Positions 2,338 through 46,144 of a DNA stretch of 46,144 bases are shown piece after piece. Within the stretch, counting starts at the first letter, position 1. Every line of letters begins with the position of its first letter. A model generated the notes under the pieces. That model was not told the DNA's origin. It saw nothing but the letters and a program-made list of their open reading frames with translations, and did no database searches. The stretch comes from a virus. Lineage: Duplodnaviria > Heunggongvirae > Uroviricota > Caudoviricetes. The position numbers were made by a program, and so were the translations under genes. The DNA lies in IMG/VR virus record IMGVR_UViG_2718218453_000007. One strand, 5' to 3'.

Positions 2338-5300
2338 TTATTTAGAGGCAAGCGCCGCCTCAATTGCAGATAATCTTTGTTTTAATTCTGCGTTTTCTTC
2401 TTCCAGCGCGGTAACGCGACCATCTGTTTCACGGGCGACCTGAACAAGTAACCCCGTCACGGCGGCGTAGTCAACATTCAGATAACGTGTTTCTTCACGT
2501 AATTCATTGCCGTCAACCGTTGGTCCCTGCAACTCTTCACCGTAATGAGTAAACGATCCCACAGCTTCTGGTATCGCCTCCATTACTTCCTGTGCAATAA
2601 CGCCAGCATAAGGCATCCCGTTTTCCCTGAGCGTGTAGGTGTATCCGTTCATTTTACGGATTGCTTTCGTCGCGTCGCTGATAACGAGAATATCGTCTTT
2701 AAGGTCGCGGTCTGATGACTGATTCAGCGTTGTGCAATTAATAGCGCCATTTACATCAAACAACTGGCCTGCTGACGTTTTTTGCGCATAAAACAGATAC
2801 GCAGCAGACGTTCCAACCTCAAAAACGTTTTGTCGAGTACTGGAACCCCACACCCTGACAGAAAACGGTAGTTCTGCATTACCTGAGTTCTGTAAAACAA
2901 AACGATTGCCAGTCCCTGTTTGTTTTGTAAGAGTTAAATCAACAGTTGAGTTAACCTCATCCTTGTTGATAGTGAGCGCCTGCGCTTTAGCCCCGTTAAC
3001 AGCACCTGTTTTGAGTTGAACCGCGCCGTCATTACCATTTAACAGTATCTCAGCTCCGCTAAAGAAATTTTTTAGCGACAACATCTTACTTACGCCGACT
3101 GATGAACCCAACGCCCACGCGAGAGAATTACCGGTGCTATCAAACCCACGTACAAAGCAATCCATTTTGCTATAGTCTGACGTGCTTCCAAGGACATCAA
3201 TCCGCCCTCCGCCAGATTTTACCGGGTTAGATGTGGTTAATGACCTGACAGCAAGATCGGTAGATGAATTGAGATCGTCTACTGTTAATAGTCGTTTCCA
3301 TCCCTTATCAACCCCAGCCTCAAAGCTTCTTGCCCAAAATTTGGAGTTGCGACCGGCGAATTGTGTGACGTAATTACCGCTAAATTGAGCATGGAATCCG
3401 CCAACAACCATTGTTCCGTCAGGACCGCCTGCGCTCCCTGCTATTGGCTTAAACTTATTTACATTCTCTGTATGTTGAGTGCTCCAGTTTTGCCCTGTGT
3501 GAACAACCAATCCCTGATAAGAACTGAAGGTACCATCAAGGTTAAAATTAAAGAACTTACTGTTCCATGAATTATTTATATCCGTGACAACAATTTCACC
3601 AGAAGCGTTAGCGGCCCTTAGTTCAGTTTGATCGACAACCGGACCTCCTTCGGATTGTAATCTTTGAGAAACAAATGTTCTGTTTGAAACGTCCGTACCA
3701 TACGCGGTGAAAGATTGTGTTGCTTTAATCTGACCATTGTTTACAAATATAGGAATAGTGACGGTAAAATTTTTGTCAAAACTCAGGCCATTTGTTAATG
3801 CAATCCTTTCTGACACCCCTTGTCTGAACGGAAGGTTGCTGTAGAAGCCATGTTCACCGCCAGTGAAGTCAAGAACATTTTTAACAAAGTTCTTGTCGTT
3901 ATCCTCCGTTGACGTTGATACACCAAACTTATATCTAACCCCGTTGTCACCAATTACGTAGTCTTCTGTTGGAACCTTAACTTTCGCCTTGTAGCCAGTT
4001 TGCACAACGACAGGAAAAGCGCTTTTATGGATGTAGAAAGCTACATGCTGCGCATAATCTCTTTGCGACGCTTTAATGCAAAGTATCCCGAGTTCATTTT
4101 TTTCATAGCAAACAAATGACCCGTAAGCCACATCGCGAACGTCACTCCAGCCACCACATCGAATGAACCCAAAAAATGAGTTACTATTAAGCGGATTTGA
4201 TGCCGGACCTCCTGCTGTTTTTATTTCAACAGGACATAACATAGCACCGCTCCCATTCATTGCGGATGTGTCTATTATGACAGGGTAGTATTTGCCATCC
4301 ACTGCACCACCAGGGGCATTAAGGGTCATCGCTTTTGTTAATCCACCCTCAGGGATTTGCAAATTAGTTTTGGCGTCATCAAGGCTATTTGCGCCAGTGC
4401 CACCATGAGAAACATCAAGCGGTATCCATTTTTTTTGTGTGTCGCTGTAACACCCCCATGTTGATCCGGTTAAACCCAGGCGCATGGATTTATCATGGTT
4501 ATATAACCATGTTTCGCTATTCCATTGGTCAAGACGGTCCACTTCATTTTTGCGAGCGTGGCGTGTCCATTGCGGGCCTGTTGTCGGATTCCAGCGATAA
4601 GTATAAAGCGAGCGCGTAGCCCATCCCTGAAATACACCTGTATACGCTGGAGTTCCATCTACCTGACTAATAAACCCCGTAAGACTGCTTTCACCGGATG
4701 CAATCGATGGAAAGCCTTTTGCATTACTCATAATGCGCATAAATCCGATATACCCTGATGGGTTGCCGGAAATATCAGGACAATCACGCGGGGCTGAGCC
4801 AAGACCGATATTATCGCCAACAATTACTTGCGCCTGGTTGCGATAATTAAGTGCGTCCGCCGCAGATTTCGCCGCGTTTGTTTCACTGGATTTAGCATTA
4901 GTTTCGCTGGCTTTAGCGTTTGTTTCGCTGCTCTTTGCTGCTGCCTCGCTATTTTTCGCGTTGGTTTCTGATTTTTTGGCTGCTGTCGCGGAGTTTGCCG
5001 ATGCAGTTTGTGAGTCTGCTGCCGCCTGTGCGCTGTTATCCGCATTCGTCTCAGACGTTTTTGCGGCCTTCGCGGAATTTCCTGCCGCCGTTGCCGAGGA
5101 AGCGGCATTACTGGCGCTCGAGGCTGCGCTCGTTTCTGATGATTTCGCTGCCTCTTTTGAGGCCGCCGCATCCCGGGCTGAGGTGGCAGCTTCTGACGCT
5201 TTCGTGGTCGCGGTGGATGCAGAAGTGGCTGCAGATTTTTGTGACGCTGCCGCATTCGTTTCTGACGTTTTCGCCGCACCGGCACTGGTAGCCGCCGCGC

Positions 5301-5883
5301 TTTTTGAGGACTCTGCAGCGGCAGCACTTTTTGATGCTTCAGTGGCCTTTGTTGATGCCGTTCCTGCGCTGGAAGACGCCTCCTGAGCCGAAGTCGCGGC
5401 CTGTCCGGCTGACGTGCTGGCTGCACGCGCTGAGCCTGCAGCATCAGTCGCATGGGTTGCCGCCTCACGGGCAGATGTGCCGGCATCACTGGCTGACTTC
5501 TTCGCGGCTGCCGTGTTCTGTGCCACCGCGGACGCGTTACGCGTCACCTCTTCCACCATCAGTTCAAAACGGCGCAGAGCCTCCGGACGGGCATCATCCT
5601 CCGTCATGGCACCGAGAAAATCATTCAGCGTACCGGGTCGGGAATCTTCATACACGGTGATGGTCCCGGCATGTGACGGCGGGAATCCTTCCACCAACAG
5701 AATAACGCTGTACTGACCGTACTCAACGTCCATGCTGTAACGCCCGGCTTCATCCGGATTTTCTGAGGCCACCGTGTTCACCACCACCGTGGTGCTGTTA
5801 CGTTTTGCTTTCAGCTGGATTGTGCAGTTCTGTACCGGTTTACCTGCACCGTCTTTCAGTACACCTGAAATCTTTACTGCCAT
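2338..5883 (-). CDS. stf: Side tail fiber protein Stf with C-terminal intramolecular chaperone (peptidase S74-like) domain
   Basis: N-terminus MAVKISGVLKDGAGKPVQNCTIQLKAKRNSTTVVV matches lambda Stf from memory; long Ala/Ser/Thr-rich repeat region (SETNA.., KSSETN..); C-terminal ...SDRDLKDDILVISDATK...EENAELKQRLSAIEAAL resembles self-cleaving endosialidase-type chaperone domains. The ORF track start (5889) is an upstream GTG; ATG at 5883 gives the lambda-like N-terminus. Confidence 0.9.
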   Translation of the reverse strand: MAVKISGVLKDGAGKPVQNCTIQLKAKRNSTTVVVNTVASENPDEAGRYSMDVEYGQYSVILLVEGFPPSHAGTITVYEDSRPGTLNDFLGAMTEDDARPEALRRFELMVEEVTRNASAVAQNTAAAKKSASDAGTSAREAATHATDAAGSARAASTSAGQAATSAQEASSSAGTASTKATEASKSAAAAESSKSAAATSAGAAKTSETNAAASQKSAATSASTATTKASEAATSARDAAASKEAAKSSETSAASSASNAASSATAAGNSAKAAKTSETNADNSAQAAADSQTASANSATAAKKSETNAKNSEAAAKSSETNAKASETNAKSSETNAAKSAADALNYRNQAQVIVGDNIGLGSAPRDCPDISGNPSGYIGFMRIMSNAKGFPSIASGESSLTGFISQVDGTPAYTGVFQGWATRSLYTYRWNPTTGPQWTRHARKNEVDRLDQWNSETWLYNHDKSMRLGLTGSTWGCYSDTQKKWIPLDVSHGGTGANSLDDAKTNLQIPEGGLTKAMTLNAPGGAVDGKYYPVIIDTSAMNGSGAMLCPVEIKTAGGPASNPLNSNSFFGFIRCGGWSDVRDVAYGSFVCYEKNELGILCIKASQRDYAQHVAFYIHKSAFPVVVQTGYKAKVKVPTEDYVIGDNGVRYKFGVSTSTEDNDKNFVKNVLDFTGGEHGFYSNLPFRQGVSERIALTNGLSFDKNFTVTIPIFVNNGQIKATQSFTAYGTDVSNRTFVSQRLQSEGGPVVDQTELRAANASGEIVVTDINNSWNSKFFNFNLDGTFSSYQGLVVHTGQNWSTQHTENVNKFKPIAGSAGGPDGTMVVGGFHAQFSGNYVTQFAGRNSKFWARSFEAGVDKGWKRLLTVDDLNSSTDLAVRSLTTSNPVKSGGGRIDVLGSTSDYSKMDCFVRGFDSTGNSLAWALGSSVGVSKMLSLKNFFSGAEILLNGNDGAVQLKTGAVNGAKAQALTINKDEVNSTVDLTLTKQTGTGNRFVLQNSGNAELPFSVRVWGSSTRQNVFEVGTSAAYLFYAQKTSAGQLFDVNGAINCTTLNQSSDRDLKDDILVISDATKAIRKMNGYTYTLRENGMPYAGVIAQEVMEAIPEAVGSFTHYGEELQGPTVDGNELREETRYLNVDYAAVTGLLVQVARETDGRVTALEEENAELKQRLSAIEAALASK

Positions 5884-6617: not shown

Positions 6618-9600
6618 TCAACGAATACTGATGCCGGAAGCAGCCTTTTTGGTCACAATCACCGTACAGTCGGTGATATTGCCTGCCCCCTGATTGCCTT
6701 TCTGGAAAATCTTAAACTCCAGAGTGACGCTTCCCCTGCCACTCGGCATATCAATAACCGCACTGTAACTACCGGGAATGGCCCCTTTAGTTTCTCTGGA
6801 TGCGATTAATACGCCGTTTTTGCGAACTTCAAAACCATACCCCGTGTACCTTGTACCTCCCGGGTTATCACCACTTCCCGGATCGTCATACGCTATACCG
6901 TTAAAGATAATGGGCGGAATAATGATTTGACGGTCAAAGTTATGATCATCGCTGATGGTGACTGTAACCGTCCCGTCTGGTGTTTCCGTATTACCCCACG
7001 TACCAGCCTTTTTCGGGAATGATTTGGATACTGTTTTAACAAAATCACCTCTGACCTGATTCGCCTCCAGCATGCCCTTAATCGTACAGTTTTCATTTAC
7101 CGTGACATTGTTGAGCGTTCCTGAGTTCGCATTCACACTGCCACTGATATCCGCATTTTTAGCGGTCAGCTTTCCGTCTGATGTCAGGGAAAATACCGGA
7201 GGACTGCCACCGCTGGTAATGGTGGGAGCCGTCAGGCGTTTCAGGAACACGTCATTCATGAATATCTGGTTGCCCTGCGCCACAAACATCGGCGTTTCAT
7301 TCCCGTTTGCCGGGTCAATAAACGCGATACGGTTAGCGGCAACCAGAAACTGGCTCAGCTTGCCTTCCTCCGTGTCCTCCATGCTGAGGCCAATACCCGC
7401 GACATAATGTTTGCCGTCTTTGGTCTGCTCAATTTTGACGCCCCACATGGCATTCCACTTATCGTTGGCGTCCTTCCACTCTTTCGAAAACTCCTCCAGT
7501 TTGCTGGCGTTATCCTCCGTCAGCTCAAAGTTTTCCAGCAGTTCCTTTCCGAGATGCGTTTTATTGATCAACCCTTTATAAAAATTCAGATAACCTTCCG
7601 CATCATCGCTCGCCCGACCGACGGCCTCCACAAATGCCGATTTACCAACGGTATTCACGCTGCGGATATAAAAGTAATAATCATAACCCGGCTTAATATT
7701 GCTACTGGCAGCTATCCAGTACAGCGCCGTGCCAAGATAGCGGGCTGTGGTTTCAACCTGCCTGATATCCGCAATCCGCTTTTCCGAGAACCAGAACTCA
7801 AACTGCACCGTCGGGTCATATACAGCCAGTTTCGGGACCGCTGTTATCTGAAAATACCCTGGTATCAGTTCAATAGTGACAGGCGCTGCAGGTGCGGCAA
7901 TCCGGAACGATACCGATGCAGGATCGCCCTGCTGCCCCCACGCATTTGCCGCCCGGACTGTCAGCCTGTAGTTTCCCAACGCCAGTTGCGTGAAGCGGTA
8001 TGTGGTTTCCGTCGTCCGGGCCGTGCTGACCAGCCGCTCACTGCCGTCATCGGCGGCCACGGTCAGGCGAAGCATAAAGCTCACGCCCTTCACCACCTTC
8101 GGCGTATCCCAGCGCGCCAGCACCTGGTATTCCCCGCTGTCTGCGGTGACTTCGGCGGTCAGGTGCTGCACCGCTGGCGGCGTGACACCATTCACCGTGC
8201 CGCTCTGGTCGCCGTCAAAGTGCGCCCCGTTATCCACGATGGCTTCTTTTTCCGGTACATGCTGCACGGCGGTGATGGCATACGTGCCGTCGTCGTTCTC
8301 ACGGATACTCACGCAGCGGAACAGGCGCTGGCGCAGCGTCGGCAGCTTCAGCCCCCACACGCTGTATTCAGCAACGCCGTCAGGAACACGGCTCACTTTC
8401 ACCTTCACGCCGTCGGTGACGGACTGAACCTCCACGCTGACCGGATTGCCACTTCCGTCAACCAGGCTTATCAGCGTGGTACCGGAGGATGGCAGCGTGA
8501 TTTCACGGTCGAGCGTCAGCGTCCGGGTCTGGCTGTTTACCGCCAGCACGCGACCACCGGTGCTGATACCGGCATAGTCATCATCGCAGATTTCAATGAC
8601 ATCGCCCGGTACATGGCGAAGCCCTTCAGCACCCACGCTGAAGTCCACGGTCTGCGTTTCCAGCAGTTCCGTTTTAATCAGCCACAGCCCGGCGCGGTGC
8701 GCCTGCCCCCGGCTGGTACAGCCAAAGGCATCCATCTTCGTGACGTTACGACCGTAACGGGCAATGGCCTGCGTATCTTCAACAAGCTCTGTCGCCGTCT
8801 CCCAGCCGTTATCCGGGTCAATCCAGTTCACCTCAACGGCATTATGGCGGTCCTTCAGGGCGCTGAAACTGTAGCGGAACGGCGCGCCATCATCCGGCAT
8901 CACCACATTACTACGGTTATAGGTCCACACCTTATCTGATGGTCGGTCCTGCACGAACGTCAGCGTCTGCCCGTTCCATACCGGCATACAGCGCATCGCC
9001 GAGCAGAAATCACTGAGCACATCCCACGCCTTACGCTGCGTGGTCAGGTAGGCATTACAGGTGATGCGCGGCTCCGTGCCGCCAAAACCGTCCGGCACTG
9101 ACTGGTCGCAGTACTGGCCGATGACATACAGCGCCCATTTATCCACATCCGCCGCACCAAGACGTTTCCCCATGCCGTAGCGCGGATGGGTCAGCATATC
9201 CCACAGACACCAGGCCATGTTGTTGCTGTATGCCGGTTTAAACGTTCCGTCCCAGATACCGCTGTATTGCCGCGTCTGCGGGTTATAGTTCGACGGCACC
9301 TGCAGAATGCGCCCGCGCAGATGATAATTACGGCTCACCTGCTGGCTGCCGAACTGCTCCGAATCCACCTGCACGCCGACCAGTGCCGTGTTCGGGTAGC
9401 CCTGTTTCACATCGATGATTTCGGTGTATGACGACCAGAGCGTTTTGTTCTGCAGCTGGTCTGTGGTGCTGTCCGGCGTCATCCTGCGCATCCGGATATT
9501 AAACGGGCGCGGCGGCAGGCTACCCACCACCACCGAGGCCAGATACTGCGAGGTGGTTTTGCCCTTAATGGTGATGTCTTTTTCCGTCACCCAGCCACCG

Positions 9601-10031
9601 TTACGTTGTATCTGAACCAGCAGACGGACTTCCGACGGATTCCTGTCACCCTTTGAGGTGGTTTCCACCAGTGCCTGTACACCGAAGGTAAAGCGCAGAC
9701 GGTCGATGTTTGCAGACGTAATGGTGCGGGTGATCGGCGTGTCATATTTCACTTCCGTACCCAGCACCGTCTCGGAGCCGGAGGATTCAAACCCCTCCGG
9801 CGGTGTCTGCTCCTGCTCACCGGCACGGAACACCACCGTGACACCGGAGATGTTGGTATTCCCCTCAGTGTCCAGCACCGGCGTACTGTTCAGCAGCACG
9901 CTTTTTAATCCATCCACCGGACCTTCAACCGGCCCTTCGCTGATGGCATCGATCACACTCAGCAACTGCGTGGACTTCAGGTTGTCCTTCGCTTCGCGCG
10001 GGGTATGCCCCTTACTGCTTCCTTTACCCAT
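6618..10031 (-). CDS. J: Tail tip / host-specificity protein J (central tail fiber)
   Basis: 1137-aa ORF at the lambda J position (lambda J is ~1132 aa); N-terminus [24 protein letters not shown] typical of J. Confidence 0.95.
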
Positions 10032-10091
10032 TCCTCACGCTCCATAAATGACAAAACCGCCCGCAGGCGGTTTCACATAAAACATTTTGCA

Positions 10092-10763
10092 TCAGCGACC
10101 AATCACCACAACCTGACCACCGTCCCCTTCGTCTGCCGTGCTGATCTCCTGAGAAACCACGCGTGACCCCACGCGCATTTCCCCGTACAGAACAGGCAGA
10201 ACATTGCCCTGGGCAACCATGTTATCCAGTGAGGAGAAATAGGTGTTCTGCTTACCGTTATCCGTTGTCTGTGTACGGGGAGTTCTGGCTTTCGGTGCCA
10301 GCATCTGCGCCACACCACCGAGCACCATACTGGCACCGAGAGAAAACAGGATGCCGGTCATACCACCGGCCCCAATGGCTGCCCCCCATGCTGCAAGGGT
10401 GGCTCCGGCGGTAAAGAATGATCCGGCAATGGCGGCAGCCCCCAGGACAATCTGGAATACGCCACCTGACTTGGCCCCGGCGACTCTGGGAACAATATGA
10501 ATCACAGCGCCATCAGGCAGAGTCTCATGTAACTGCGCCGTTAACCCGGACGTGCTGACGTCCCGCCCGGCAATCCGTACCTGATACCAGCCGTCGCTCA
10601 GTTTCTGACGAAACGCCGGGAGCTGTGTGGCCAGTGCCCGGATGGCTTCAGCCCCCGTTTTCACACGAAGGTCGATGCGGCGACCAAATCGTTGTAAATC
10701 CCCGTAAAGGCAGATGCGCGCCATGCCCGGTGACGCCAGAGGGAGTGTGTGCGTCGCTGCCAT
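10092..10763 (-). CDS. I: Tail assembly protein I
   Basis: 223-aa ORF at the lambda I position, overlapping K by ~100 nt as in lambda; ubiquitin-like N-terminal region and Gly-rich hydrophobic C-terminus. Confidence 0.9.
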   Translation of the reverse strand: MAATHTLPLASPGMARICLYGDLQRFGRRIDLRVKTGAEAIRALATQLPAFRQKLSDGWYQVRIAGRDVSTSGLTAQLHETLPDGAVIHIVPRVAGAKSGGVFQIVLGAAAIAGSFFTAGATLAAWGAAIGAGGMTGILFSLGASMVLGGVAQMLAPKARTPRTQTTDNGKQNTYFSSLDNMVAQGNVLPVLYGEMRVGSRVVSQEISTADEGDGGQVVVIGR

Positions 10764-11404
10764 TTGTCGGTGTACCTCTCTCGTTTGCTCAGTTGTTCAG
10801 GAATATGGTGCAGCAGCTCGCCGTCGCCACAGTAAATGGCGGCGTGATTCGGCACCGATGAACCAAAACAGCACAGCAGCACATCGCCCGGCTGTGCCGC
10901 TGACAACGGCACCTGATACAGCCCCGTCGCCTCCAGATTATCCAGATAGAGATTCTGGCCGTTACGCCACCAGTCATCCTCACGATGAAAGTCCGGCATC
11001 TCAATCCCCGCCAGATGATAAGCATCCCGGAACAGTGTGTAACAGTCCGTCACACCGTGCTCAAAGCGCCGCCCGGTGAGATGCGGCACACAGCGGAACT
11101 TATGAATCGTCCCCCGGCAGACCAGCCACCACGGCAAATCACTCTGCACCTGCAGCCGCCGGTCGGCCTCACTCAGCCAGGGCAGACCACCGGGGTGGCT
11201 GTGGACCAGCGCCACAATCTCACCCTGCATTTCTGCCTGCAGCCAGTCTTCCGGCGACATACGGAAATACGCCTCCGGCTCACCGGAGATATTCACGCAG
11301 GGGAAATATCTTTCCCCCTCCGGCGTGCTTACCACAAAGCCGCACGACTCCGCTGGCGCACATCGCCGGGCGTGCGCCAGAATCGCTGATTCTGTCTGTG
11401 TCAT
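10661..11404 (-). CDS. K: Tail tip assembly protein K (JAMM/MPN + NlpC/P60-like)
   Basis: Contains JAMM-like motif HSHPGGLPWLSEADR near the N-terminus; lambda position; the open frame is longer (247 aa) than the classical 199-aa K annotation. Confidence 0.85.
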   Translation of the reverse strand: MTQTESAILAHARRCAPAESCGFVVSTPEGERYFPCVNISGEPEAYFRMSPEDWLQAEMQGEIVALVHSHPGGLPWLSEADRRLQVQSDLPWWLVCRGTIHKFRCVPHLTGRRFEHGVTDCYTLFRDAYHLAGIEMPDFHREDDWWRNGQNLYLDNLEATGLYQVPLSAAQPGDVLLCCFGSSVPNHAAIYCGDGELLHHIPEQLSKRERYTDKWQRRTHSLWRHRAWRASAFTGIYNDLVAASTFV

Positions 11405-11409
11405 GGGAT

Positions 11410-12108
11410 TTACTGCGAAAGTTTGTTAATGGAAAGGAAGCCGCCAAAGTTGCCGACGTTATTGCGGAACTTACAACCGCTCAGGCATTTGCTGCATTTA
11501 TCCTTCGTGATATCGGACGTTGGCTGGTCATATTCATCCGCGACAGCCGGACCGCTATAACCGCACTCGTCACCGCGATAGGTCCAGGTGCAGGTGTTGG
11601 CCAGCATGATACGTCCCGGAAAAACAGCGCCATCCGTTTCCGTCGGCGTGGACAGTACAAAGGAGGCACTCACCGCGCTCAGTTCGCTGCACTGCTCGAT
11701 GCGCCAGCGGCTGATCACCTCCTGCTCCGGATCGGCGTCACTGTTTCCGTTGACGAAGTTCACCGCATCCAGAAAACGGGCGTAAACCTTACGCCGGACC
11801 ACCGTTCCGCCGACCAGACTCTGCAGATCTTCCGCCATCCCGGTGACCATACCGTACAGGTTAGAAACCGTCAGCGTGGGGCGCGTACTGGTGCCTTTGC
11901 CATTCAGTTCAAAACCGCTCCCCTGAATGGGATACGGCTGATACTGTCGCCCCTGCCAGGTGACCGGCTCACCTTTTTCGTTCTGCTCATTACAGAAAAA
12001 ATAACGTTCTCCACCGACCTCTGTCAGGTCGATTTCCCAGAGCACCACGCTGGCCGACTGCTCCGCACGGGTGCATTCATTCAGTGTTTCCTGCCGGATA
12101 TCCTGCAT
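11410..12108 (-). CDS. L: Tail tip protein L
   Basis: 232-aa ORF at the lambda L position; Cys cluster CTWTYRGDECGY and C..C near the C-terminus. Confidence 0.9.
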   Translation of the reverse strand: MQDIRQETLNECTRAEQSASVVLWEIDLTEVGGERYFFCNEQNEKGEPVTWQGRQYQPYPIQGSGFELNGKGTSTRPTLTVSNLYGMVTGMAEDLQSLVGGTVVRRKVYARFLDAVNFVNGNSDADPEQEVISRWRIEQCSELSAVSASFVLSTPTETDGAVFPGRIMLANTCTWTYRGDECGYSGPAVADEYDQPTSDITKDKCSKCLSGCKFRNNVGNFGGFLSINKLSQ

Positions 12109-28597: not shown

Positions 28598-29650
28598 TTA
28601 TTTCCCCACCAGCTCGTTTATCTCTTTCACTGTCTGGTTAAACCGCTCTGACTCAAGCTCAACACCTAAGGCCCGACGCCCCAGCGCCATTGCTGCTTTT
28701 ATTGTGGAACCGGATCCCATAAAAAAATCAGCAACCAGATCACCAGGTCGACTACTGGCATTGATTATTTGCCTGAGCATATCCGCCGGTTTCTCACACG
28801 GATGTTTACCCGGGTAGAACTGAACGGGTTTATGCATCCAGACATCGGTATAAGGCACGGAGACTGATACGGAGAAATAGCGCCGGAGAGATTTAAACTC
28901 ATCCAGCAATTCAGAATATTTACGATTCAGTGAATCATAAGATGCCACCAGCTGGTGGTGTGGTTGTTCCAGTTGTTGTTCCTGAAACTTCTCTGCCGCT
29001 ATACGGGAAAACAGTGCCTGTAACTTCCGATAGTCAGCCTCATTCGGCAACTGCCACTGACTGGCACCAAACCAGTGGGAAACCATATTTTTCTTACCTG
29101 TGGCTTCGGCAATTTGTTTTGCCGTTATACCCAGTTCGGCACGAGCATCCCTGAAATACGATATCAGCGGTGCCATTATGTGCTGTTTGAGTTCCCTTTC
29201 TTTTGCTGCATAGCCGTCACTTTTGCCGCGATATGGCCCCTGGTAATGTTCAGCAAACAGAACGCGCTCTGTGGCAGGAAAATATGCGCGCAGACTTTCT
29301 TTATTACACCCATTCCAACGTCCGGACGGCTTCGCCCAGATGATATGGTTAAGCACGTTGAAACGTTCACGCATCATGATCTCAATATCAGATGCCAGGC
29401 GATGCCCACAGAACAGGTAAAGGCTTCCGGCAGGTTTTAACACCCGCCAGAACTGGGCCAGACAGTGGTCCAGCCACTTAAGGTAATCTTCGTCCCCTTT
29501 CCACTGATTGTCCCAGCCGTTGGGTTTCACCTTGAAGTACGGCGGATCGGTAACAATCAGGTCAATGGAATCATCAGGCAGGGACTGAATAAAATGCAGG
29601 CAATCAGCGTTGATTAAATCAACACTGTTTATTTTTACAGTATTTTTCAT
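28598..29650 (-). CDS. Orphan DNA methyltransferase, beta-class (N6-adenine or N4-cytosine)
   Basis: DPPY motif ([11 protein letters not shown]) near the N-terminus and AdoMet-binding FxGxG motif (DFFMGSGST) near the C-terminus; no adjacent restriction endonuclease ORF. Confidence 0.85.
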
Positions 29651-30272: not shown

Positions 30273-31214
30273 ATGAGTACAGAAAATAAGAATAAAACTA
30301 GGCGAGTGAGAGTTGGTTTTTTCACTGGTAATGGAAGCAAAAAAGATGGCACATCTGCTGCAAAACTAGCCTTTGAGCAAATGACCACAGCAGATACTGT
30401 AACTTTTCCAATAACTTACACAACAGACACCCCAAATCGAGGGTTAAAGTTAGTTATTCTTCAAAAAGATACCACACTGCAATGTTACTTTGGTTACGTA
30501 TCGTGGAGAAGGGAATGCCTACTACCGTTCATCGAGGATGCTACAGGTAGTGAGAGAACAATTCCTTTAAATGATAAAGATTCTGTAGTTGAAAGAACAT
30601 ATTTTATCTATTACTACGAAACGGATTTATTAGCTATGACCCTCAACCATATAGGGCCCAAAGTAAATGATCTGGCATTCATTTTGTATAACAAAACTGA
30701 TTTAAAAAGCGTCACTTTTGAAGCCATTTGGAAACAAGAGAGCATGAAGGAACTGCTTGAGGACGGAAATATCCTACGTAGTTTCGATCTTATAGTTGCT
30801 GCTCCAAGAAACTTTAACAAAGCTAATTATAAGATTAAAAACCCTTTAGCTAATGAAATTATTGACATGGTTGTTGGTATGGGCGGGTCGCATCTAAGAT
30901 TAAATATGCGAGGTCGGATTCGCCCGAAAAAACAAGGTTTTAACTATCTAAAAACTTCTGTCACCGATGCTATTAAGGAACTACTTGAACTTTTTCCAAA
31001 AGGTTCTGGAGGTCTAAAAATTAAAAAAATTGATGTAACAGAGCCATCCAATAGAACGCCCAAAAGTCTACTTGACCAAGTATTGGTCAGTACAAAGACA
31101 ATCATTGTCAAAAGCGGTTATCCATCCGATTCTGATATCAGAACGGCGATGATATCTGCTAAAATTGATAACGCGAACTATCTTGCACAGTATGAGCTCG
31201 CTAGCAGAGACTAA
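30273..31214 (+). CDS. Hypothetical cytoplasmic protein (313 aa), first gene of a two-gene accessory cassette
   Basis: AT-rich ORF, opposite orientation to flanking phage genes; no recognisable catalytic motif. Confidence 0.6.
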   Translation: MSTENKNKTRRVRVGFFTGNGSKKDGTSAAKLAFEQMTTADTVTFPITYTTDTPNRGLKLVILQKDTTLQCYFGYVSWRRECLLPFIEDATGSERTIPLNDKDSVVERTYFIYYYETDLLAMTLNHIGPKVNDLAFILYNKTDLKSVTFEAIWKQESMKELLEDGNILRSFDLIVAAPRNFNKANYKIKNPLANEIIDMVVGMGGSHLRLNMRGRIRPKKQGFNYLKTSVTDAIKELLELFPKGSGGLKIKKIDVTEPSNRTPKSLLDQVLVSTKTIIVKSGYPSDSDIRTAMISAKIDNANYLAQYELASRD

Positions 31215-31223
31215 TAACCAAGC

Positions 31224-31685
31224 ATGGAGGACACAATGAGAGAATTAGCCACTTTTCTCTGGAAATGCGTCCTCTGGATTCTGTTGACCTATGCAGCGAC
31301 AAAACTGTTTAAACCGATGAAGCATGCTGACGTACTCACAACAGCGGGGGTGCTCTCGACTATATCAGGCATCCTGTTTGGTTTTGTTCTGGCTGCAATA
31401 TCTATATTTAGTAGTGCAAACAGCGATAAGGAAGGAGCAATTAATGCCCTTAAGCAAAACAACGTGTTACCAACTCTGGTAAATCGATTACTTTCAACAG
31501 GGTTAACTCTCATCGTCGCATGTATATTTCCATTGATAGCGATGTTTCTACCAGATGATGTTATTGTTGCGGGCAAACCTATTGATTTCCTATTCATACT
31601 GTTAGGCTTATCCTCCCTTATAATTTCGCTATATACCTTCGGAAGGTGTTGGTTAGTGTTACGAAAAATCTTCCCCCACTTGTGA
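31224..31685 (+). CDS. Integral membrane protein (about 4 TM helices), second gene of the accessory cassette
   Basis: Hydrophobic segments VLWILLTYAATKLF, VLSTISGILFGFVLAAISIF, LTLIVACIFPLIAMFL, FLFILLGLSSLIISLYTF; 9-nt gap after the upstream gene. Confidence 0.6.
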   Translation: MEDTMRELATFLWKCVLWILLTYAATKLFKPMKHADVLTTAGVLSTISGILFGFVLAAISIFSSANSDKEGAINALKQNNVLPTLVNRLLSTGLTLIVACIFPLIAMFLPDDVIVAGKPIDFLFILLGLSSLIISLYTFGRCWLVLRKIFPHL

Positions 31686-34319: not shown

Positions 34320-34642
34320 ACTTTCAGGCCTCTCTCATGTAACCAGTGAGTTGCACGCAGCCTTGCGTTTTCCTCACCGGCAAGCAGTGAGCGGATAATC
34401 CCGACCGCCTCGCTGTCGTCGTCCTTCACCGCGGTATGAAGCGTGATCCCCCGGGCCACACCACGCTTTATCGTGATGACGCCTTTTTTCTCCAGTGCGC
34501 GAAGATGCTCCACCGCTGCATTCACCGAACGGTATCCCAGCATGGTTGCCACCTCCTGATTGGTTGGCGGGAAGCCACGCTCTTTCTGATAAGAAATCAG
34601 CATATCCAGCACCTGCTGCTGGCATTGAGTTAACGTCGTCAT
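34316..34642 (-). CDS. LexA N-terminal DNA-binding-domain-like protein (no S24 peptidase domain)
   Basis: LTQCQQQVLDMLISYQKERGFPPTNQEVATMLGYRSVNAAVEHLRALEKKGVITI resembles the LexA winged-helix domain; protein is only 108 aa. Confidence 0.6.
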   Translation of the reverse strand: MTTLTQCQQQVLDMLISYQKERGFPPTNQEVATMLGYRSVNAAVEHLRALEKKGVITIKRGVARGITLHTAVKDDDSEAVGIIRSLLAGEENARLRATHWLHERGLKV

Positions 34643-35292
34643 GCCGCCATCTCCCTGACCAGCTTTTCCGCCTGCAGGCGAACCTGCGCCAGAAACGCCT
34701 CACCACATGCCTCAAGTTCATCGCGCCCGATATAGCTGATTGCCGGTCCCTTCCAGGTCTTGTCGAAAACAGCAATAGCACCAGCGAAGAAAGCGCCTGT
34801 CGGCACCTGCTTCTCATCCTTCGGGATAAACCAGGCAGGCAGTTCAAAACCAATACGCCCGCGAATAAAAGCAATATGATCTGCATCTTCCGGCCACCAC
34901 ACTTCGCTGGTGGCAGCTTTGATCAGGAAAACATAGCGCCCGCCCTTATCACGCATGGCACTGGCATGCTTCATGATGTAACGCATGCCGGTGATGTATT
35001 GCCCCTCATGCTGACTGGCGCGGCTGTATGGGGGATTTCCAAAGGCAGCACCTTTAAGCTCCGCAAGGCGTTCTGACCAGTCATGCGCCAGCGCGTTGTC
35101 TTCCGCCGTGTAATACGCAGCGCATTTGGCGTTATCACCGTCAGTGAACAGATCCAGAACAAACGGACCAAACAGGGTGTTAATTCCCCAGAAAATGTTG
35201 TCCGGCGTGCGCCACTGATCGCCCACTTCCTTCAGTTCATGGGCTGGTTTGTTCCGCAGTTCCACCAGCGCCTGGCAATATTTATTACTCAT
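34639..35292 (-). CDS. Phage Dam-type N6-adenine DNA methyltransferase (orphan)
   Basis: NPPY motif (FGNPPYS); stop/start overlap TAATG with the upstream gene at 35290-35294; the track ORF start (35325) is 11 codons upstream. Confidence 0.85.
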   Translation of the reverse strand: MSNKYCQALVELRNKPAHELKEVGDQWRTPDNIFWGINTLFGPFVLDLFTDGDNAKCAAYYTAEDNALAHDWSERLAELKGAAFGNPPYSRASQHEGQYITGMRYIMKHASAMRDKGGRYVFLIKAATSEVWWPEDADHIAFIRGRIGFELPAWFIPKDEKQVPTGAFFAGAIAVFDKTWKGPAISYIGRDELEACGEAFLAQVRLQAEKLVREMAA

Positions 35293-41268: not shown

Positions 41269-41805
41269 ATGTCATTTATTAAAACTTTTTCCGGGAAGCA
41301 TTTTTATTATGACAAGATAAATAAAGACGACATCAATATTAACGATATCGCGGTTTCCCTTTCAAATATCTGTCGCTTTGCCGGTCATCTTTCGCACTTC
41401 TACAGCGTCGCCCAACATGCGGTTCTTTGCAGCCAGCTGGTGCCGCAGGAATTTGCTTTTGAAGCCTTAATGCATGATGCAACAGAAGCGTATTGCCAGG
41501 ACATCCCCGCGCCACTGAAACGCCTTCTTCCTGACTATAAACGGATGGAAGAAAAAATAGACGCCGTAATCCGTGAGAAATACGGGTTACCCCCGGTTAT
41601 GAGTACGCCCGTGAAATATGCCGATCTTATCATGCTGGCAACCGAACGCCGCGATCTCGGGCTTGATGATGGCTCTTTCTGGCCTGTACTGGAAGGCATC
41701 CCGGCAACAGAGATGTTCAACGTGATTCCACTGTCGCCAGGCCATGCCTATGGGATGTTTATGGAACGCTTCAACGAGTTATCGGAATTACGCAAATGTG
41801 CATAA
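41269..41805 (+). CDS. yfdR: HD-domain 5'-deoxynucleotidase, YfdR-like
   Basis: HD-type metal-binding residues in ...LSNICRFAGHLSHFYSVAQHAVLCSQL...ALMHDATEAY...; ATG at 41269 preceded by GGAGAA; 178 aa as K-12 YfdR. Confidence 0.65.
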   Translation: MSFIKTFSGKHFYYDKINKDDININDIAVSLSNICRFAGHLSHFYSVAQHAVLCSQLVPQEFAFEALMHDATEAYCQDIPAPLKRLLPDYKRMEEKIDAVIREKYGLPPVMSTPVKYADLIMLATERRDLGLDDGSFWPVLEGIPATEMFNVIPLSPGHAYGMFMERFNELSELRKCA

Positions 41806-42674
41806 CTCATGTAGTTAGTTTTTCTGGCGGGAGAACATCCGCATATCTTGTTCACCTGATGGAAGAACAAAGAAAGGCTGGCAATAACGTCTGCTACATC
41901 TTTATGGATACCGGTTGCGAACATCCGCTGACATACCGCTTTATTCGGGAGGTTGTGAAGTTCTGGGGCATACCACTAACTGTGTTGCAGGTCGATATCA
42001 ATCCTGAGCTTGGGCAGCCAAATGGTTATACAGAATGGGAGCCAAAGGATATTCAGACGCGAATGCCGGTACTTAAACCGTTTATGGACATGGTTAAAAA
42101 GTACGGCACGCCATACATCGGTGGCGCATTCTGTACTGACAGGCTAAAACTCATCCCTTTCACGAAATACTGCGATAACCATTTCGGGCGAGGTAATTAC
42201 ATCACATGGCTGGGTATTCGTGCAGACGAACCCCGTAGGCTGAAACCGAAATCGGGCATCCGGTATCTTGCCGAACTGTCAGATTTTGATAAGTCGGATG
42301 TTATCCGGTGGTGGCGAAAACAACCTTTTGATTTGCAAATCCCGGAGCATCTCGGGAACTGTGTTTTCTGCATCAAAAAGTCAACGCAAAAGCTGGGGCT
42401 TGCATGTAAAGACGAACCAGGTCTGATGCGGGTTTTTAATGAACTGGTTACAGGCAAACACGTCAGGGATGGTCATCGCAGAACAGGTAAAGACGTTATG
42501 TACCGTGGTCACCTGACGCTTGACGGAATTGCCAGAATGTCTGCCAACAGCGACTACAGAAATTTGTATCAGGCGATGGTACAGGCCAGGCGATTCGATA
42601 CCGGCTCGTGTTCAGAGTCATGTGAAATCTGGGGTGATCAATTGGAATTGAAATTCGAAGAGGTAGGGGTATGA
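41796..42674 (+). CDS. PAPS-reductase-like / PP-loop ATP pyrophosphatase family protein
   Basis: N-terminal PP-loop-like motif VVSFSGGRTSAYL; C-terminal Cys cluster (CVFC...C..C). Confidence 0.65.
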   Translation: MCITHVVSFSGGRTSAYLVHLMEEQRKAGNNVCYIFMDTGCEHPLTYRFIREVVKFWGIPLTVLQVDINPELGQPNGYTEWEPKDIQTRMPVLKPFMDMVKKYGTPYIGGAFCTDRLKLIPFTKYCDNHFGRGNYITWLGIRADEPRRLKPKSGIRYLAELSDFDKSDVIRWWRKQPFDLQIPEHLGNCVFCIKKSTQKLGLACKDEPGLMRVFNELVTGKHVRDGHRRTGKDVMYRGHLTLDGIARMSANSDYRNLYQAMVQARRFDTGSCSESCEIWGDQLELKFEEVGV

Positions 42675-43018
42675 CAACCGAAATTAACTACCATGCACTG
42701 CTTGAGCGCGCACGGAATAAAGTGCAGAGCATTGAGTTCGCCTTAACACAGAGTGCATTCGCTGAGATTCGCGCTGAGCTTGAAGATGATTTAGAACTGG
42801 CACGGATTGCACTGGCATCTCTGGAAGTTGAGCCAGATGAACGCGCAGCCTATGAATTATTTATGGAAAAGCGTTTCGGTAAAACAGTCGATCGTCGGAG
42901 AGCAAAAAACGGTGATAACGAGTACATGGCGTGGGATATGGCTCTCGGCTGGGTCGTCTGGAAACAACGCGCTGGCATGAGTCTTTCAACTGCACAACCA
43001 CAGGAGGGTCAACAATGA
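42671..43018 (+). CDS. Hypothetical early protein (115 aa)
   Basis: ORF overlapping the upstream stop by 4 nt (translational coupling); no family recognised. Confidence 0.45.
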   Translation: MTTEINYHALLERARNKVQSIEFALTQSAFAEIRAELEDDLELARIALASLEVEPDERAAYELFMEKRFGKTVDRRRAKNGDNEYMAWDMALGWVVWKQRAGMSLSTAQPQEGQQ

Positions 43019-43209
43019 ACAACTTAATGACAACAAAACAAGTCGCCGAATTCTGTGGAGTTTCAATATCGACGGTGCTTCGCTGGAACAGTGTAAACCG
43101 GAGGACTGGTCAGAAATATCGGCCTGATTTTCCAGATCCTGATATTAAATCCTGCCCAAATAAATGGGCATCACGTAAGATATACAGGTTTGCAGGAGTA
43201 ATTGAGTAA
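43015..43209 (+). CDS. Excisionase-like HTH protein (Xis/AlpA-type)
   Basis: MNNLMTTKQVAEFCGVSISTVLRWNSV... HTH typical of small excisionase/AlpA proteins; GGAGGG Shine-Dalgarno upstream of the ATG at 43015; last gene of the operon facing int. Confidence 0.55.
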   Translation: MNNLMTTKQVAEFCGVSISTVLRWNSVNRRTGQKYRPDFPDPDIKSCPNKWASRKIYRFAGVIE

Positions 43210-43268
43210 CAAACATTAGCTCAAATGTGAGCTGGCACATCTATGGCACAAGCCAAACAGATCTGACT

Positions 43269-43309
43269 GTCTGCTCTGTATCAAGAGCAGACAAGCTATT
43301 TATTTTTTT
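43269..43309 (+). terminator. Intrinsic terminator ending the early-left operon
   Basis: GTCTGCTCT-gtatca-AGAGCAGAC 9-bp perfect stem followed by a T-rich run (TATTTATTTTTTT). Confidence 0.7.
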
Positions 43310-43494
43310 ACATGAAAATGCGCGCTCTTTGGACGTTAGGGTTATTCTATCCAGAGCCAGCAGCACCTCTTAGCCAAGTACATAATTGCAGGCACAATCC
43401 GGCATCGATGTGCAGCTCCGGTCGCTGAACTGCTGGAAAACCCTTCCGTTCATAAGCCAGTCTCGATACGTGGCAACAGTATCATTGATACAAT

Positions 43495-44748
43495 TTATTT
43501 TAATTTTCCCGTACCTCGAAGAAGTGATAGGTATTGATCAGTGGCAAGTAATGGTAGATTATTCTCTTGGCTAGAGTCGATATCTCTAATTAAAATTGTA
43601 CGGTTTTTTATGCTGAACTTGTATTTAGCCTCCAGCATTGCCCAAAACATTCTTTTATTTAATCTTGATAGTCTTATAAAATTTACAAGACCTTCAAGGC
43701 TCATAACTAAAACTTTCGCCCCTTTTGACTCTTTAAGGTTGCTAATTTCGTTATAAATCTTTTCAGCACCTTCTTTCTCTAAAACAAGATCTGAGATTAT
43801 CACTAAATGATAAATACCCTTTCTGCGCTTTATTAAGCATTCCCTCCCGTCATAATTAATAACCACATCATTATTTAGAATTGGGATAACGCCTTTAACC
43901 TGATCGATCCCTTGCAATGCTTTTTTCTTATACATGCTACAAAGCTTTTCATGAGATTTCAAACCCATTTCAATCAAAGATGATGCTTTAGACTGTATAG
44001 ATAATACATAGTCATTTTCTACAATAAGAATATCAACTAGTTCTCTTTTTTTATTACCCTCAATAATATCTGGAGAAAAAAACACTTCCTCCGGTGAAAA
44101 GACCTGCCGCAAAGCATGGTATATAAGAGCTTCCTGCTCATATCCCTCAGAGCCGTTTTCACTGACGCTAAATTCATATGTTAATACGGTATCGTTTGGT
44201 TCATGAACACTTGCTAGGTAAGATTTTTTATCGATTACACTTAGTGGCAGACTAATTATTTTCTCGTTACCAGTCAAAGCATTGTTGCAGAATTCATCCA
44301 TTGCTTCATTACCTTCCCTAAATCCTGAATTGAGAGAATATGAATTAGCACAAAATTTTTTTAAACATTCACACGGTAAATTTTCCGAAACTTTTATTTT
44401 CAGGTCCATAACACGCATTGTATGCGAGTCAAAAAATGATAATAGAATACCATCATAAGCGCCTGACAATAACAAATCCAGCCCTTTAATTTCATCTACC
44501 TCTCTTGGTGGATAGGCTAGTAAAAATGGATTATCGACATTATCTTCAATCAACATCCCAATCACTAGTATATTTTTAGTAGATAAACCTACCAAAAAGT
44601 GGATAGGTGCTCCTGACCAGACGGATTTAATTATAGGAAGGCTTGATTTAAGTATTATGTGGATATTACGATTTTCACTATCTACCCACACTCCATGTAA
44701 CTCATTGTTTAAATAGGCCAAAAGTTTAGTATTCATTTCAACTTTCAT
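43495..44748 (-). CDS. Hypothetical protein (417 aa), AT-rich orphan gene between Xis-like and int
   Basis: Long uninterrupted AT-rich ORF with its own upstream intergenic region; no confident domain assignment; a possible PD-(D/E)xK-like segment (VDILIVENDYVLSIQSK) is speculative. Confidence 0.6.
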   Translation of the reverse strand: MKVEMNTKLLAYLNNELHGVWVDSENRNIHIILKSSLPIIKSVWSGAPIHFLVGLSTKNILVIGMLIEDNVDNPFLLAYPPREVDEIKGLDLLLSGAYDGILLSFFDSHTMRVMDLKIKVSENLPCECLKKFCANSYSLNSGFREGNEAMDEFCNNALTGNEKIISLPLSVIDKKSYLASVHEPNDTVLTYEFSVSENGSEGYEQEALIYHALRQVFSPEEVFFSPDIIEGNKKRELVDILIVENDYVLSIQSKASSLIEMGLKSHEKLCSMYKKKALQGIDQVKGVIPILNNDVVINYDGRECLIKRRKGIYHLVIISDLVLEKEGAEKIYNEISNLKESKGAKVLVMSLEGLVNFIRLSRLNKRMFWAMLEAKYKFSIKNRTILIRDIDSSQENNLPLLATDQYLSLLRGTGKLK

Positions 44749-44920
44749 TTCCTTATTGTGATAATGATGGTGTTCAACACAAACTGGCCAGCAGTTCCAG
44801 TATAGTACATCAGTAACTTAGATTGCTTAACTGCAAATCGCGCGTTTTCTAAACATCATATATCCGCTCCTCGCTCAAAGCGGACTGTCATATTTTATTG
44901 CGTTCAAAATATGCAAACTG

Positions 44921-46144
44921 TCAGTTGGTGTCTGAACCAGAACAAGTAACAATCGATTCAACTCTCTCCCACCATGCCTGGTAGGCTTTACGCTGTTCTT
45001 CTAAATAATCACTCTTGTCATAAACTTGCCATACCCCCGGCAGTTTATGACCGAGCATTATTTCTGCGATATGAGGCGCAGTAAGATCAGAAAAGTTTGT
45101 TCGTGCTGTTCGCCTCAAATCATGCAGAGACCAATGAGGGAATTGATACCCCAAACGCCGCCATGCATACTGCATTAAATTGTAAGGCAGCGACTGCAAT
45201 GATGTCCGACCAACGGGTTCCCTGCTTCCTTCCTTAGTAAAAAGCATATCGGAACCATTGTTCATAGAAATAGCGTACTTTATAAGCTCTTCAACCGGTT
45301 CAATAATGGGCCGCTTTAGCGGTTCGCCCGTTATCTCCCCAGTCTTATGTCGTTCTGGTGGTACAGTCCATACTTTATTAATGAAATCAAAATCGTCCAC
45401 CCTGGCGGTAATTAGCTCTGAACTACGGCAGCCAAAATGCAGCAATAGTTTAATGAAGGCCCGGTATTTAGGAACCATTCGAGAACCATCGATCGCAGCA
45501 TAAAGGATTTTAATTTCATCATGTGTCAGAAACCGTTTCTTCTGACCTTTACGGATATCCATATCTTTACCCGTGATATCCGACAGCGGGCGAGTTTCAA
45601 TGAGCTTTCTCTTATACGCCCAGACATGGGCCTGCTTTGCGTTAATTAGCAATCGGTCTGCTATTGCTGGAGTCTTAGTGCTAAGAGGCTCCAGGACTTC
45701 TAACCAATCATGCAATGTAGCTGCATCGTGAGGGATATTCCCGATTTTAGAGAACAGGTGCAGCTCAAACGAGCGGAGTATCTGTTCAGAGCCTTTTTTA
45801 TTTTTTACACAATATGCTTCATACCAGGCACGGATCACAGACTCTACCGTCATGGCTTCAGTAGCTTTTCGTTTTTCAGCCTGCTTGACCAATCGTGGAT
45901 TACGGTTTGACTCGAGTTCACCACGGAGACGGATAACTTCTTCTCTGGCCTCTTTTAATCCAGTTGCTGGGTAAGTTCCGATATCAAGACGCTCACCTTT
46001 CCCTGCCCATTGATAACGATATTGGAACACTACGCGACCTTTCGGTGATACTCTGACAGACAGACCATCACGATCGGATTTAACCAAAACCTTATCACGT
46101 TCCTTTCCAACGACTGAACGCAACCACGCATCAGACAGCGCCAT
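44921..46144 (-). CDS. int: Tyrosine integrase, P4-family
   Basis: N-terminus MALSDAWLRSVVGKERDKVLVKSDRDGLSVRVSPKGRVVFQYRYQWAGKGERLDIG typical of P4-type integrases; C-terminal catalytic region with HDLRRT and LGHKL...Y; start codon is the last 3 nt of the window. Confidence 0.9.
   Translation of the reverse strand: MALSDAWLRSVVGKERDKVLVKSDRDGLSVRVSPKGRVVFQYRYQWAGKGERLDIGTYPATGLKEAREEVIRLRGELESNRNPRLVKQAEKRKATEAMTVESVIRAWYEAYCVKNKKGSEQILRSFELHLFSKIGNIPHDAATLHDWLEVLEPLSTKTPAIADRLLINAKQAHVWAYKRKLIETRPLSDITGKDMDIRKGQKKRFLTHDEIKILYAAIDGSRMVPKYRAFIKLLLHFGCRSSELITARVDDFDFINKVWTVPPERHKTGEITGEPLKRPIIEPVEELIKYAISMNNGSDMLFTKEGSREPVGRTSLQSLPYNLMQYAWRRLGYQFPHWSLHDLRRTARTNFSDLTAPHIAEIMLGHKLPGVWQVYDKSDYLEEQRKAYQAWWERVESIVTCSGSDTN

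Follow-up and report, generated by a model that had tools for sequence, protein, structure and literature searches.

A candidate single-gene anti-phage nuclease in the int-xis slot of a lambdoid Escherichia coli prophage

Two intervals in the genomes of mobile elements, psu-int of P4 and gpA-gpQ of P2 (the site of old and tin), were described as defence hotspots by Rousset and colleagues, and 11 of the 16 P4 hotspot systems tested were protective. A 2026 follow-up obtained protection from 6 of 8 randomly picked P4 hotspot loci of unknown function. Here we analyse a gene in the 46,144 nucleotides (nt) of the IMG/VR virus record IMGVR_UViG_2718218453_000007 (Caudoviricetes), the whole of which is called the window below. 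Over the stretches compared, the window is base for base a lambdoid prophage of E. coli a15 that is integrated beside yjjG. The gene in question, referred to as the cargo gene (43495-44748, minus strand), lies between an excisionase-like gene (xis) and the integrase gene (int). An earlier reading of the letters and open reading frames (ORFs), made without database searches (the sequence-only reading), had singled it out as an AT-rich orphan and a possible piece of defence or lysogenic-conversion cargo; our results confirm its observation and support its interpretation. We put the probability that the cargo gene is a self-contained, single-gene anti-phage nuclease of an int-xis defence hotspot at roughly 0.6, judging from genomic context and predicted fold.

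Among the closest described systems are END nucleases, MspJI/AspBHI and Mrr, i.e. single-gene enzymes that combine a sensor with a non-specific cleavage module and have no methyltransferase, as we propose for the cargo protein. They serve as our model of how an enzyme of this sort could spare the cell that carries it. The sensors differ, however: END nucleases pair a PLD nuclease with an inactivated EndoIII sensor and MspJI-type enzymes carry an SRA-like sensor, neither of which was found in the cargo family. A second point of comparison is provided by NERD proteins, which belong to the PDDEXK clan. They are common in defence islands, and ZwsA is a validated RNA-phage defence nuclease. The validated NERD defence proteins differ from the cargo protein in architecture, ZwsA being multidomain, DS-26 532 amino acids (aa) and SC24 463 aa long. 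We also note that a domain-centric defence screen left out single genes by design.

The slot occupied by the cargo gene has conserved flanks. On one side lies the tyrosine integrase gene (44921-46144, minus strand; domains Arm-DNA-bind_3, Phage_int_M and Phage_integrase), on the other an excisionase-like helix-turn-helix gene (43015-43209, plus strand) whose homologue in phage 2H10 is annotated as an excisionase. The longest version of the latter ORF begins with GTG at 42931; it was left out of the PGAP annotation and shows only weak HTH_17/MerR-type matches (E ~1e-3), and its likely start is the ATG at 43015, which gives 64 aa. Both flanks are 93-98% identical to those of Stx1a- and Stx2c-converting phages, phage 2H10 and PhiR63_1. 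The integrase was found at 80% or higher nt identity in 699 of 5,426 complete E. coli genomes (at 90% or higher in all but one), and the cargo gene in 74 of the 699 (10.6%), where it is always single-copy, at least 99% identical and in the order xis-cargo-int. This presence/absence comparison among related prophages, which the sequence-only reading had proposed, corresponds to carriage in about 1.4% of complete E. coli genomes.

At least six other alleles occupy the int-xis slot. Other strains that have this integrase at this chromosomal site encode an AIPR protein (566 aa), a dGTPase-family protein (408 aa), a pair of 160 and 150 aa, or a protein of 331 aa in the slot, while phages PhiR63_1 and 2H10 have yet other genes in the slot. 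PADLOC identifies the AIPR allele as AbiU (E 2.6e-111) and the dGTPase allele as a dGTPase defence gene (E 3.5e-105). These two alleles share the slot, the integrase, the chromosomal site and the junction hairpin type with the cargo gene, whereas they have no sequence or fold kinship with its product and differ in mechanism. The suggestion that the int-proximal end of the prophage is a cargo hotspot is borne out by the variable occupancy of a fixed slot, by the known defence alleles and by homologues of the cargo gene in the published P4 and P2 hotspots; the best reading of the slot is a polymorphic defence hotspot. A description of a lambdoid int-xis hotspot for the present phage group was not found in the literature examined.

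The same distribution bears on the alternative that the nuclease serves the life cycle or the competition of the prophage itself, be it by host DNA degradation, lytic recombination and repair, or anti-defence. A nuclease fold that is encoded in a phage genome and that defence databases do not recognise would fit such a role. However, the gene is absent from about 89% of the prophages with the same integrase and flanks, and a tblastn search of 50,697 deposited phage genomes, 34 of which share the flanks, gave no homologue of the cargo protein, so the gene is dispensable for the life cycle. Moreover, it lies outside the early operon and convergent to it, and it also occurs in Tn7-like, serine-recombinase and plasmid islands. 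We consider a life-cycle role quite unlikely. Neither homology to a conserved phage core function nor universal presence at this position, either of which would have spoken against a cargo gene according to the sequence-only reading, was found.

The gene is indeed a single long ORF, with a coding sequence (CDS) of 417 aa from the first ATG at 44748 to the TAA stop at 43495-43497. The likely true start is Met5 (44736), which is the start in the PGAP annotation and in most homologues and gives 413 aa; the identical sequence, annotated in E. coli a15, bears the RefSeq name WP_078071578.1, 'hypothetical protein'. The GC content is 0.340 (0.285 at third codon positions) as compared to 0.454 in int, 0.45-0.48 in the early genes and 0.506 in the window, i.e. 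far below the neighbours, as had been observed; it is 2.5 standard deviations under the mean of 1254-nt windows, and the window has just two other AT-rich islands besides the cargo gene. At such a composition the chance probability of a 417-codon open frame is about 4e-16. Comparison with the Salmonella and Kluyvera copies described below gives a ratio of non-synonymous to synonymous substitution rates (dN/dS) of 0.29-0.30, which shows that the ORF is a genuine gene and that purifying selection acts on it. It runs in the same direction as int and towards the plus-strand yfdP/yfdQ/yfdR/PAPS-reductase/xis operon, a convergent orientation that the sequence-only reading had given correctly for this early-left operon.

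The limits of the variable segment are well defined. Homology between alleles ends at 43258-43292 on the xis side and restarts at 44866-44914 on the int side, which delimits a variable cassette of about 1.6 kb comprising the CDS, some 115-165 nt upstream and about 200 nt downstream. The left end is marked by the hairpin TGTCTGCTCT-N6-AGAGCAGACA with a T-run (43268-43309, plus strand), the intrinsic terminator of the early operon; its 10-bp stem spans 43268-43293, the T-run reaches to about 43309, and the folding energy (dG -17.6 kcal/mol, z -4.2) agrees with the strong terminator that had been assumed here. The right end is marked by the hairpin GTCCGCT-N10-AGCGGAT (44862-44885, minus strand; dG -12.8 kcal/mol), 36 nt past the int stop codon. 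Both hairpins fit the pattern GTCYGCT-loop-AGCRGAC (43269-43292 and 44862-44885), no other such site is present in the window, and a comparable hairpin was seen at both junctions in every alternative allele examined. The motif count alone is not significant (4 strand-hits, as compared to 1.0 on average and at most 4 in shuffled sequences); only the position at both junctions is conspicuous. The hairpins may serve both as terminators and as the joints at which recombination exchanges one cassette for another.

The cassette is also found in unrelated elements. In the SSU5-like phage-plasmid pCFSAN006211 of Salmonella Senftenberg, window positions 43285-44874 are matched at 92% nt identity and with the same limits, and in the chromosome of Kluyvera sichuanensis 43477-44885 is matched, along with the terminal 52 nt (43286-43337), which lie beyond an insertion sequence (IS) of the IS3 family. 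The 3' non-coding tail (43294-43494, minus strand) is about 92% identical to the Salmonella copy, and in Kluyvera those terminal 52 nt are all that is left of it. The sequence-only reading had proposed an upstream region belonging to the gene, and it is indeed the case that about 125-135 nt before the start codon accompany the gene into unrelated elements. The cassette-borne 5' non-coding region (44749-44861, minus strand) presumably holds the promoter and the ribosome-binding site, because this stretch travels with the gene into both the Salmonella phage-plasmid and the Kluyvera chromosome. In other words, the cargo gene moves autonomously as a single-gene cassette of about 1.6 kb.

Some details of these copies are worth recording. 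In the phage-plasmid the cassette (homologue at 4613-5851) starts about 20 nt past an IS110-family transposase gene, which could be a coincidence or could be tied to the arrival of the cassette. In Kluyvera (NZ_JABBJF010000001.1, 8010-10552) the upstream junction hairpin has come along with the cassette, and the gene is split near codon 378 by the IS3-family element (orfA 9329-9613, orfB 9670-10482), after which the cassette tail restarts at 10501-10552. With a PDC-S11 defence candidate (6716-7801, E 8.6e-107) and a protein of 311 aa that has an Mrr-like D...EAK motif (10733-11668) as neighbours, the region looks like a defence island. A Klebsiella pneumoniae plasmid (NZ_CP057035.1, about 70228-71061) is matched in two places, the best match covering only residues 1-277 at 92% identity, so this copy, too, has probably been disrupted.

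Discrete ends could also be the mark of a selfish, homing-type nuclease that cuts the empty or otherwise occupied int-xis slot, or the hairpin boundary, and has its cassette copied by recombinational repair. Such an enzyme would explain why the lambdoid prophage, the phage-plasmid and the chromosomal island agree in their cassette limits, and why a similar hairpin stands at both ends and nowhere else in the window. Yet every other allele, including the non-nuclease AbiU and dGTPase genes, has the same junction hairpin type, which means that the boundaries belong to the slot and not to the cargo gene. In addition, distant homologues reside in P2 and P4 hotspots that have no junction hairpins, and free-standing homing endonucleases do not typically reach about 400 aa or carry a conserved additional domain. 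Homing is thus very unlikely to be the function of the gene.

The description of the cargo protein as an orphan holds only in part. It has no direct family match in Pfam, NCBIfam, PADLOC or the sequences of the PDB, whereas it does match PHROG 30399, a family to which no function is assigned. Malic-enzyme matches (E about 0.01) were weak and were judged spurious. A word-indexed search of 5.8 billion proteins gave 13 clusters at 54-99% identity, the named ones all from Enterobacterales, and an exhaustive HMMER scan of 1.84 billion cluster representatives gave 134 at E <= 1e-3. Most of the latter are about 400 aa long and align end to end at 21-39% identity. The cargo protein therefore belongs to a rare but real family with a fixed two-domain architecture. 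Named members come from Escherichia, Salmonella, Klebsiella, Kluyvera, Serratia, Morganella, Yersinia, Rouxiella, Pantoea and Aliivibrio, and most others are metagenomic singletons. A profile scan of genome contigs with the alignment of close homologues pointed to a single locus.

The settings of the homologues are diverse. A 54%-identical copy on a Yersinia pseudotuberculosis plasmid lies beside a restriction endonuclease and a PLD-family gene. The Rouxiella badensis homologue (P0015, 33% identity) is in a P4-like satellite, between Ogr/Delta and the integrase, and adjoins a two-gene Hydrolase/Hydrolase-TM system identified by PADLOC. The Pantoea homologue (P0016, 32%) belongs to a P2-like prophage, where it has the replication gene gpA on one side and the portal gene on the other. 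Further copies are located in an integrase/AlpA island, a serine-recombinase island and a Tn7-like element, and plasmids and phage-plasmids are also among the hosts. No conserved neighbour gene was seen across the ten homologue contexts examined.

The structure of the protein was predicted with AlphaFold2 from an alignment of 101 relatives (17-61% identity to the query, mostly below 30%), and the resulting model has a pLDDT of 92.3 and a pTM of 0.90; an earlier model based on 14 close sequences only had reached a pLDDT of 68. The fold of the C-terminal half is that of a PD-(D/E)xK nuclease, of the type seen in the FokI/BspD6I cleavage modules, and its catalytic constellation is conserved. The nuclease core comprises residues ~196-330 (43759-44163, minus strand), the limits being set from motif positions, the mapping of NERD matches and secondary structure. 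It shows a restriction-endonuclease-like alpha/beta core with a conserved acidic residue in the first helix, an aspartate at the beginning of the second strand and a (D/E)xK-type motif in the third, so that what the sequence-only reading had offered as a guess, a PD-(D/E)xK-like segment, turned out to be right. The catalytic-type residues are E206 (44131-44133), E236 (44041-44043), D239 (44032-44034), Q252 (43993-43995), K254 (43987-43989) and Q283 (43900-43902), all on the minus strand. Five of these, E206, E236, D239, K254 and Q283, are invariant in the 101-sequence alignment, as is G202, and K34, D69, P226, G286, L372 and R375 are nearly so. The cargo protein is predicted to cleave DNA, presumably in a metal-dependent manner.

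The remaining parts of the protein are less readily classified. The N-terminal domain (residues 1-195; 44164-44748, minus strand) has a mixed alpha/beta fold and is the proposed sensor or regulatory domain; its family-conserved residues are K34 (44647-44649), K41, D69 (44542-44544) and W21. The C-terminal strand and helical region (residues 331-417; 43498-43758, minus strand) is net basic (15 K+R vs 8 D+E) and contains a clade-specific tail, DIDSSQExNLPLL (residues ~389-402), that lacks a counterpart in most of the wider family. Two other interpretations were rejected. The N-terminal domain is not a degenerate duplicate of the nuclease domain (hhalign probability 0.6%), and the protein is not a membrane-anchored nuclease, the maximum hydropathy being 1.76 in a region modelled as beta strands.

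Position 252 deserves comment. It is E in 83 of the 101 sequences, Q in 16, the cargo protein included, and S in 2, with LIESKAL as the consensus of the third motif; Q252 arose repeatedly, in several otherwise consensus-like lineages. The residue set E-D-QxK is catalytically active in Tn7 TnsA, hence Q252 alone is no sign of inactivity. The Enterobacterales clade deviates from the family consensus at several conserved positions together (E108 to S/A, E252 to Q, H313 to Y/F, D350 to S, E353 to G and R375 to K) and retains E206, E236, D239, K254 and Q283; this pattern suggests a clade-specific change in a secondary metal or regulatory site. The lost acidic residues, E252 among them, and the presence of the gene on plasmids and phage-plasmids would be in line with an addiction or toxin module, or with a catalytically dead nuclease-fold protein that has a regulatory or structural role. 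Nevertheless, a conserved adjacent small antitoxin-like gene is missing, E206, D239 and K254 are invariant, the E-to-Q exchange recurs independently within the family, and purifying selection acts over the whole protein. Both variants appear highly improbable.

Comparison with characterized nucleases places the cargo family near several groups and within none of them. NERD (PF08378) is the sole Pfam family that is matched repeatedly, and its matches coincide with the predicted nuclease core. Weak matches were obtained for 18 of the 101 sequences, at residues ~205-320 in those inspected. The scores of ten relatives scored singly (13-17 bits) lie under the gathering threshold of 22.1 bits, the best E among the 101 is 9.8e-5, and the window protein itself has no NERD match at E <= 1. 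The Type IIS enzymes FokI and R.BspD6I-Nt.BspD6I are only 11-13% identical; the cargo protein has no DNA-recognition domain of their type, and no part of these enzymes is related to its N-terminal domain. A Type IIS restriction-modification system is also at variance with the absence of an adjacent cognate methyltransferase: the two methyltransferases of the prophage are 8-15 kb away in other modules, the slot holds the cargo gene alone, and no methyltransferase was found near the P4, P2 or Tn7-like copies. Dam-like methyltransferases do occur 1-1.5 kb from the homologues in Salmonella pCFSAN006211 (L003) and in one further context (L014).

As for Can2/Card1, which join CARF and PD-(D/E)xK domains, only the nuclease-sized part aligns, over 136-151 residues in the case of Can2. 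Pfam detects no CARF or SAVED domain in the 101 members, a single member has a weak PADLOC CARF_2M match (E 0.0077), and no CRISPR type III or cyclase genes are nearby. The nuclease-domain profile of Shedu (SduA, DUF4263) did not identify the cargo protein, and PADLOC gave three isolated matches among the 101 relatives (E 0.003-0.008). A PDB profile search with the family alignment returned 0 matches, and the viral fold library BFVD gave sub-threshold matches to the nuclease domain only, with no full-length analogue. Identity with the P4 systems Crouga, Bandua, Aernus, Toga, Reve and Hailong was rejected because of their other architectures, and no match was found to Zws, Upx or END. The two NERD-type systems of the DefensePredictor study, DS-26 and SC24, have other lengths and are absent among the cargo-protein homologues. 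By fold and motif, the cargo protein belongs to the PD-(D/E)xK superfamily, and it is formally outside NERD, Type IIS restriction-modification, Can2/Card1, Shedu and the PADLOC 2.0 systems. In those parts of the literature that we examined there is no sign that the family had been named or tested.

Within the general idea of defence, the cargo protein could be a Type IV-like, modification-dependent enzyme in which the N-terminal domain binds hydroxymethylcytosine, glucosyl-hydroxymethylcytosine or other hypermodifications and the cleavage module cuts only modified phage DNA; unmethylated host and prophage DNA would then need no protection. This would be in accordance with a single polypeptide that has no cognate methyltransferase or antitoxin in the ten contexts, and with AspBHI and McrC among the fold matches. 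However, these fold matches are only as long as the nuclease domain, and no SRA, EVE, YTH, ASCH, PUA or winged-helix domain was detected in the 101 members or by a PDB profile search with the N-terminal domain. A methyl-directed enzyme would, moreover, have to tolerate the two DNA methyltransferases of its own prophage. We regard this mechanism as possible but doubtful. In general, the N-terminal domain has no Pfam match in any of the 101 members, no PDB sequence matched its profile and no fold match was reported for it. When its profile was used to look for the domain in combination with other effectors, only fragments of the cargo family came up, in a search limited by the word-index prefilter.

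We return to the reading that we prefer, a self-contained anti-phage nuclease that probably defends the lysogen against other phages. In this scheme the N-terminal domain would act as a sensor or gate that recognises some feature of the invader, such as modified or non-self DNA, a DNA structure or a phage protein. Upon recognition the nuclease modules would assemble and cut DNA, and either the invader DNA would be destroyed or the cell would undergo abortive infection. FokI-type cleavage domains are generally understood to need dimerisation, and by analogy an assembly of two modules would be required for cleavage. Direct restriction could take place in the manner of modification-dependent enzymes that work without a methyltransferase, and neither a methyltransferase nor an antitoxin nor any other partner would be needed. 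The gene itself moves among prophages, satellites, phage-plasmids and islands as a hairpin-bounded cassette of 1.6 kb with its own flanking non-coding DNA.

Several points weigh against this reading. PADLOC-DB 2.0 gives 0 matches to the window protein at E <= 10, and WP_078071578.1 was not found in the DefensePredictor supplements to the extent that these were examined. The P2 hotspot also holds non-defence cargo, e.g. partition systems and toxins. A scan for sigma-70 consensus sites upstream of the cargo gene detected no promoter. The loss of conserved acidic residues in the clade (E108S/A, E252Q, D350S, E353G) could alter or weaken catalysis. Finally, the role and the trigger of the N-terminal domain are pure conjecture, because this domain resembles nothing known. 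On the other hand, the homing, life-cycle and addiction or dead-enzyme alternatives are less likely since non-nuclease alleles share the hairpins, the gene is dispensable, and the catalytic residues are invariant and under purifying selection. Taken from sequence and model, the cargo protein appears to pair a known kind of effector with a novel partner domain, and it is a credible candidate for a new single-gene defence nuclease. A bolder version, which we think unlikely, is that the N-terminal domain has an unprecedented fold and senses a novel cue, i.e. no modified base, cyclic nucleotide or known class of trigger, that it activates the FokI-type module by induced dimerisation, and that hairpin-guided recombination is a general means of defence-gene exchange among lambdoid prophages, phage-plasmids and islands.

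Confirmation would add a compact nuclease system of a single gene (~1.2 kb) to the anti-phage repertoire, and the int-xis slot of the lambdoid prophages that integrate at yjjG, whose integrase is also that of Stx1a and Stx2c phages, would be a defence hotspot comparable to those of P2 and P4. The cargo gene is one candidate among many; its added appeal lies in the proposed sensor domain, the FokI-type module and the clean limits of the cassette. A FokI-type module gated by a putative sensor domain of a new kind would offer a tractable route to a new phage cue and, possibly, a conditional non-specific nuclease for biotechnological use. The hairpin-bounded cassette provides a handle on the exchange of defence genes among unrelated mobile elements, and its carriage in E. 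coli may affect the host range in phage therapy.

Other genes of the prophage deserve a brief mention. In the early-left operon a PAPS-reductase-family (PP-loop) gene (41796-42674, plus strand) lies between yfdR (5'-deoxynucleotidase) and a 115-aa hypothetical gene; a protein of this family has no obvious role in a lambdoid early operon. The two DNA methyltransferase genes, both on the minus strand, are located at 28598-29650 (350 aa, beside the lysis genes) and at 34639-35292 (phage N6-adenine methyltransferase, in the replication/nin region). A further AT-rich island at 30273-31685 (plus strand, GC < 0.40) contains hypothetical genes of 313 and 149 aa, and the Q antiterminator and DNA-methyltransferase genes on either side lie on the other strand; the two hypothetical genes have no PADLOC match and look like another moron-type cargo. 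The remaining island, positions 1-1900, is the lowest-GC segment of the window (~0.32). Located past the tail-fibre genes, at the other end of the prophage from the cargo gene, it encodes a SLATT-domain protein (1-552, plus strand) and a reverse transcriptase (530-1900, plus strand). PADLOC matches these to RTasSLATT (E 1.3e-56) and RT_UG17 (E 1.2e-158), i.e. a defence-associated UG17 DRT+SLATT system is present in the same prophage.

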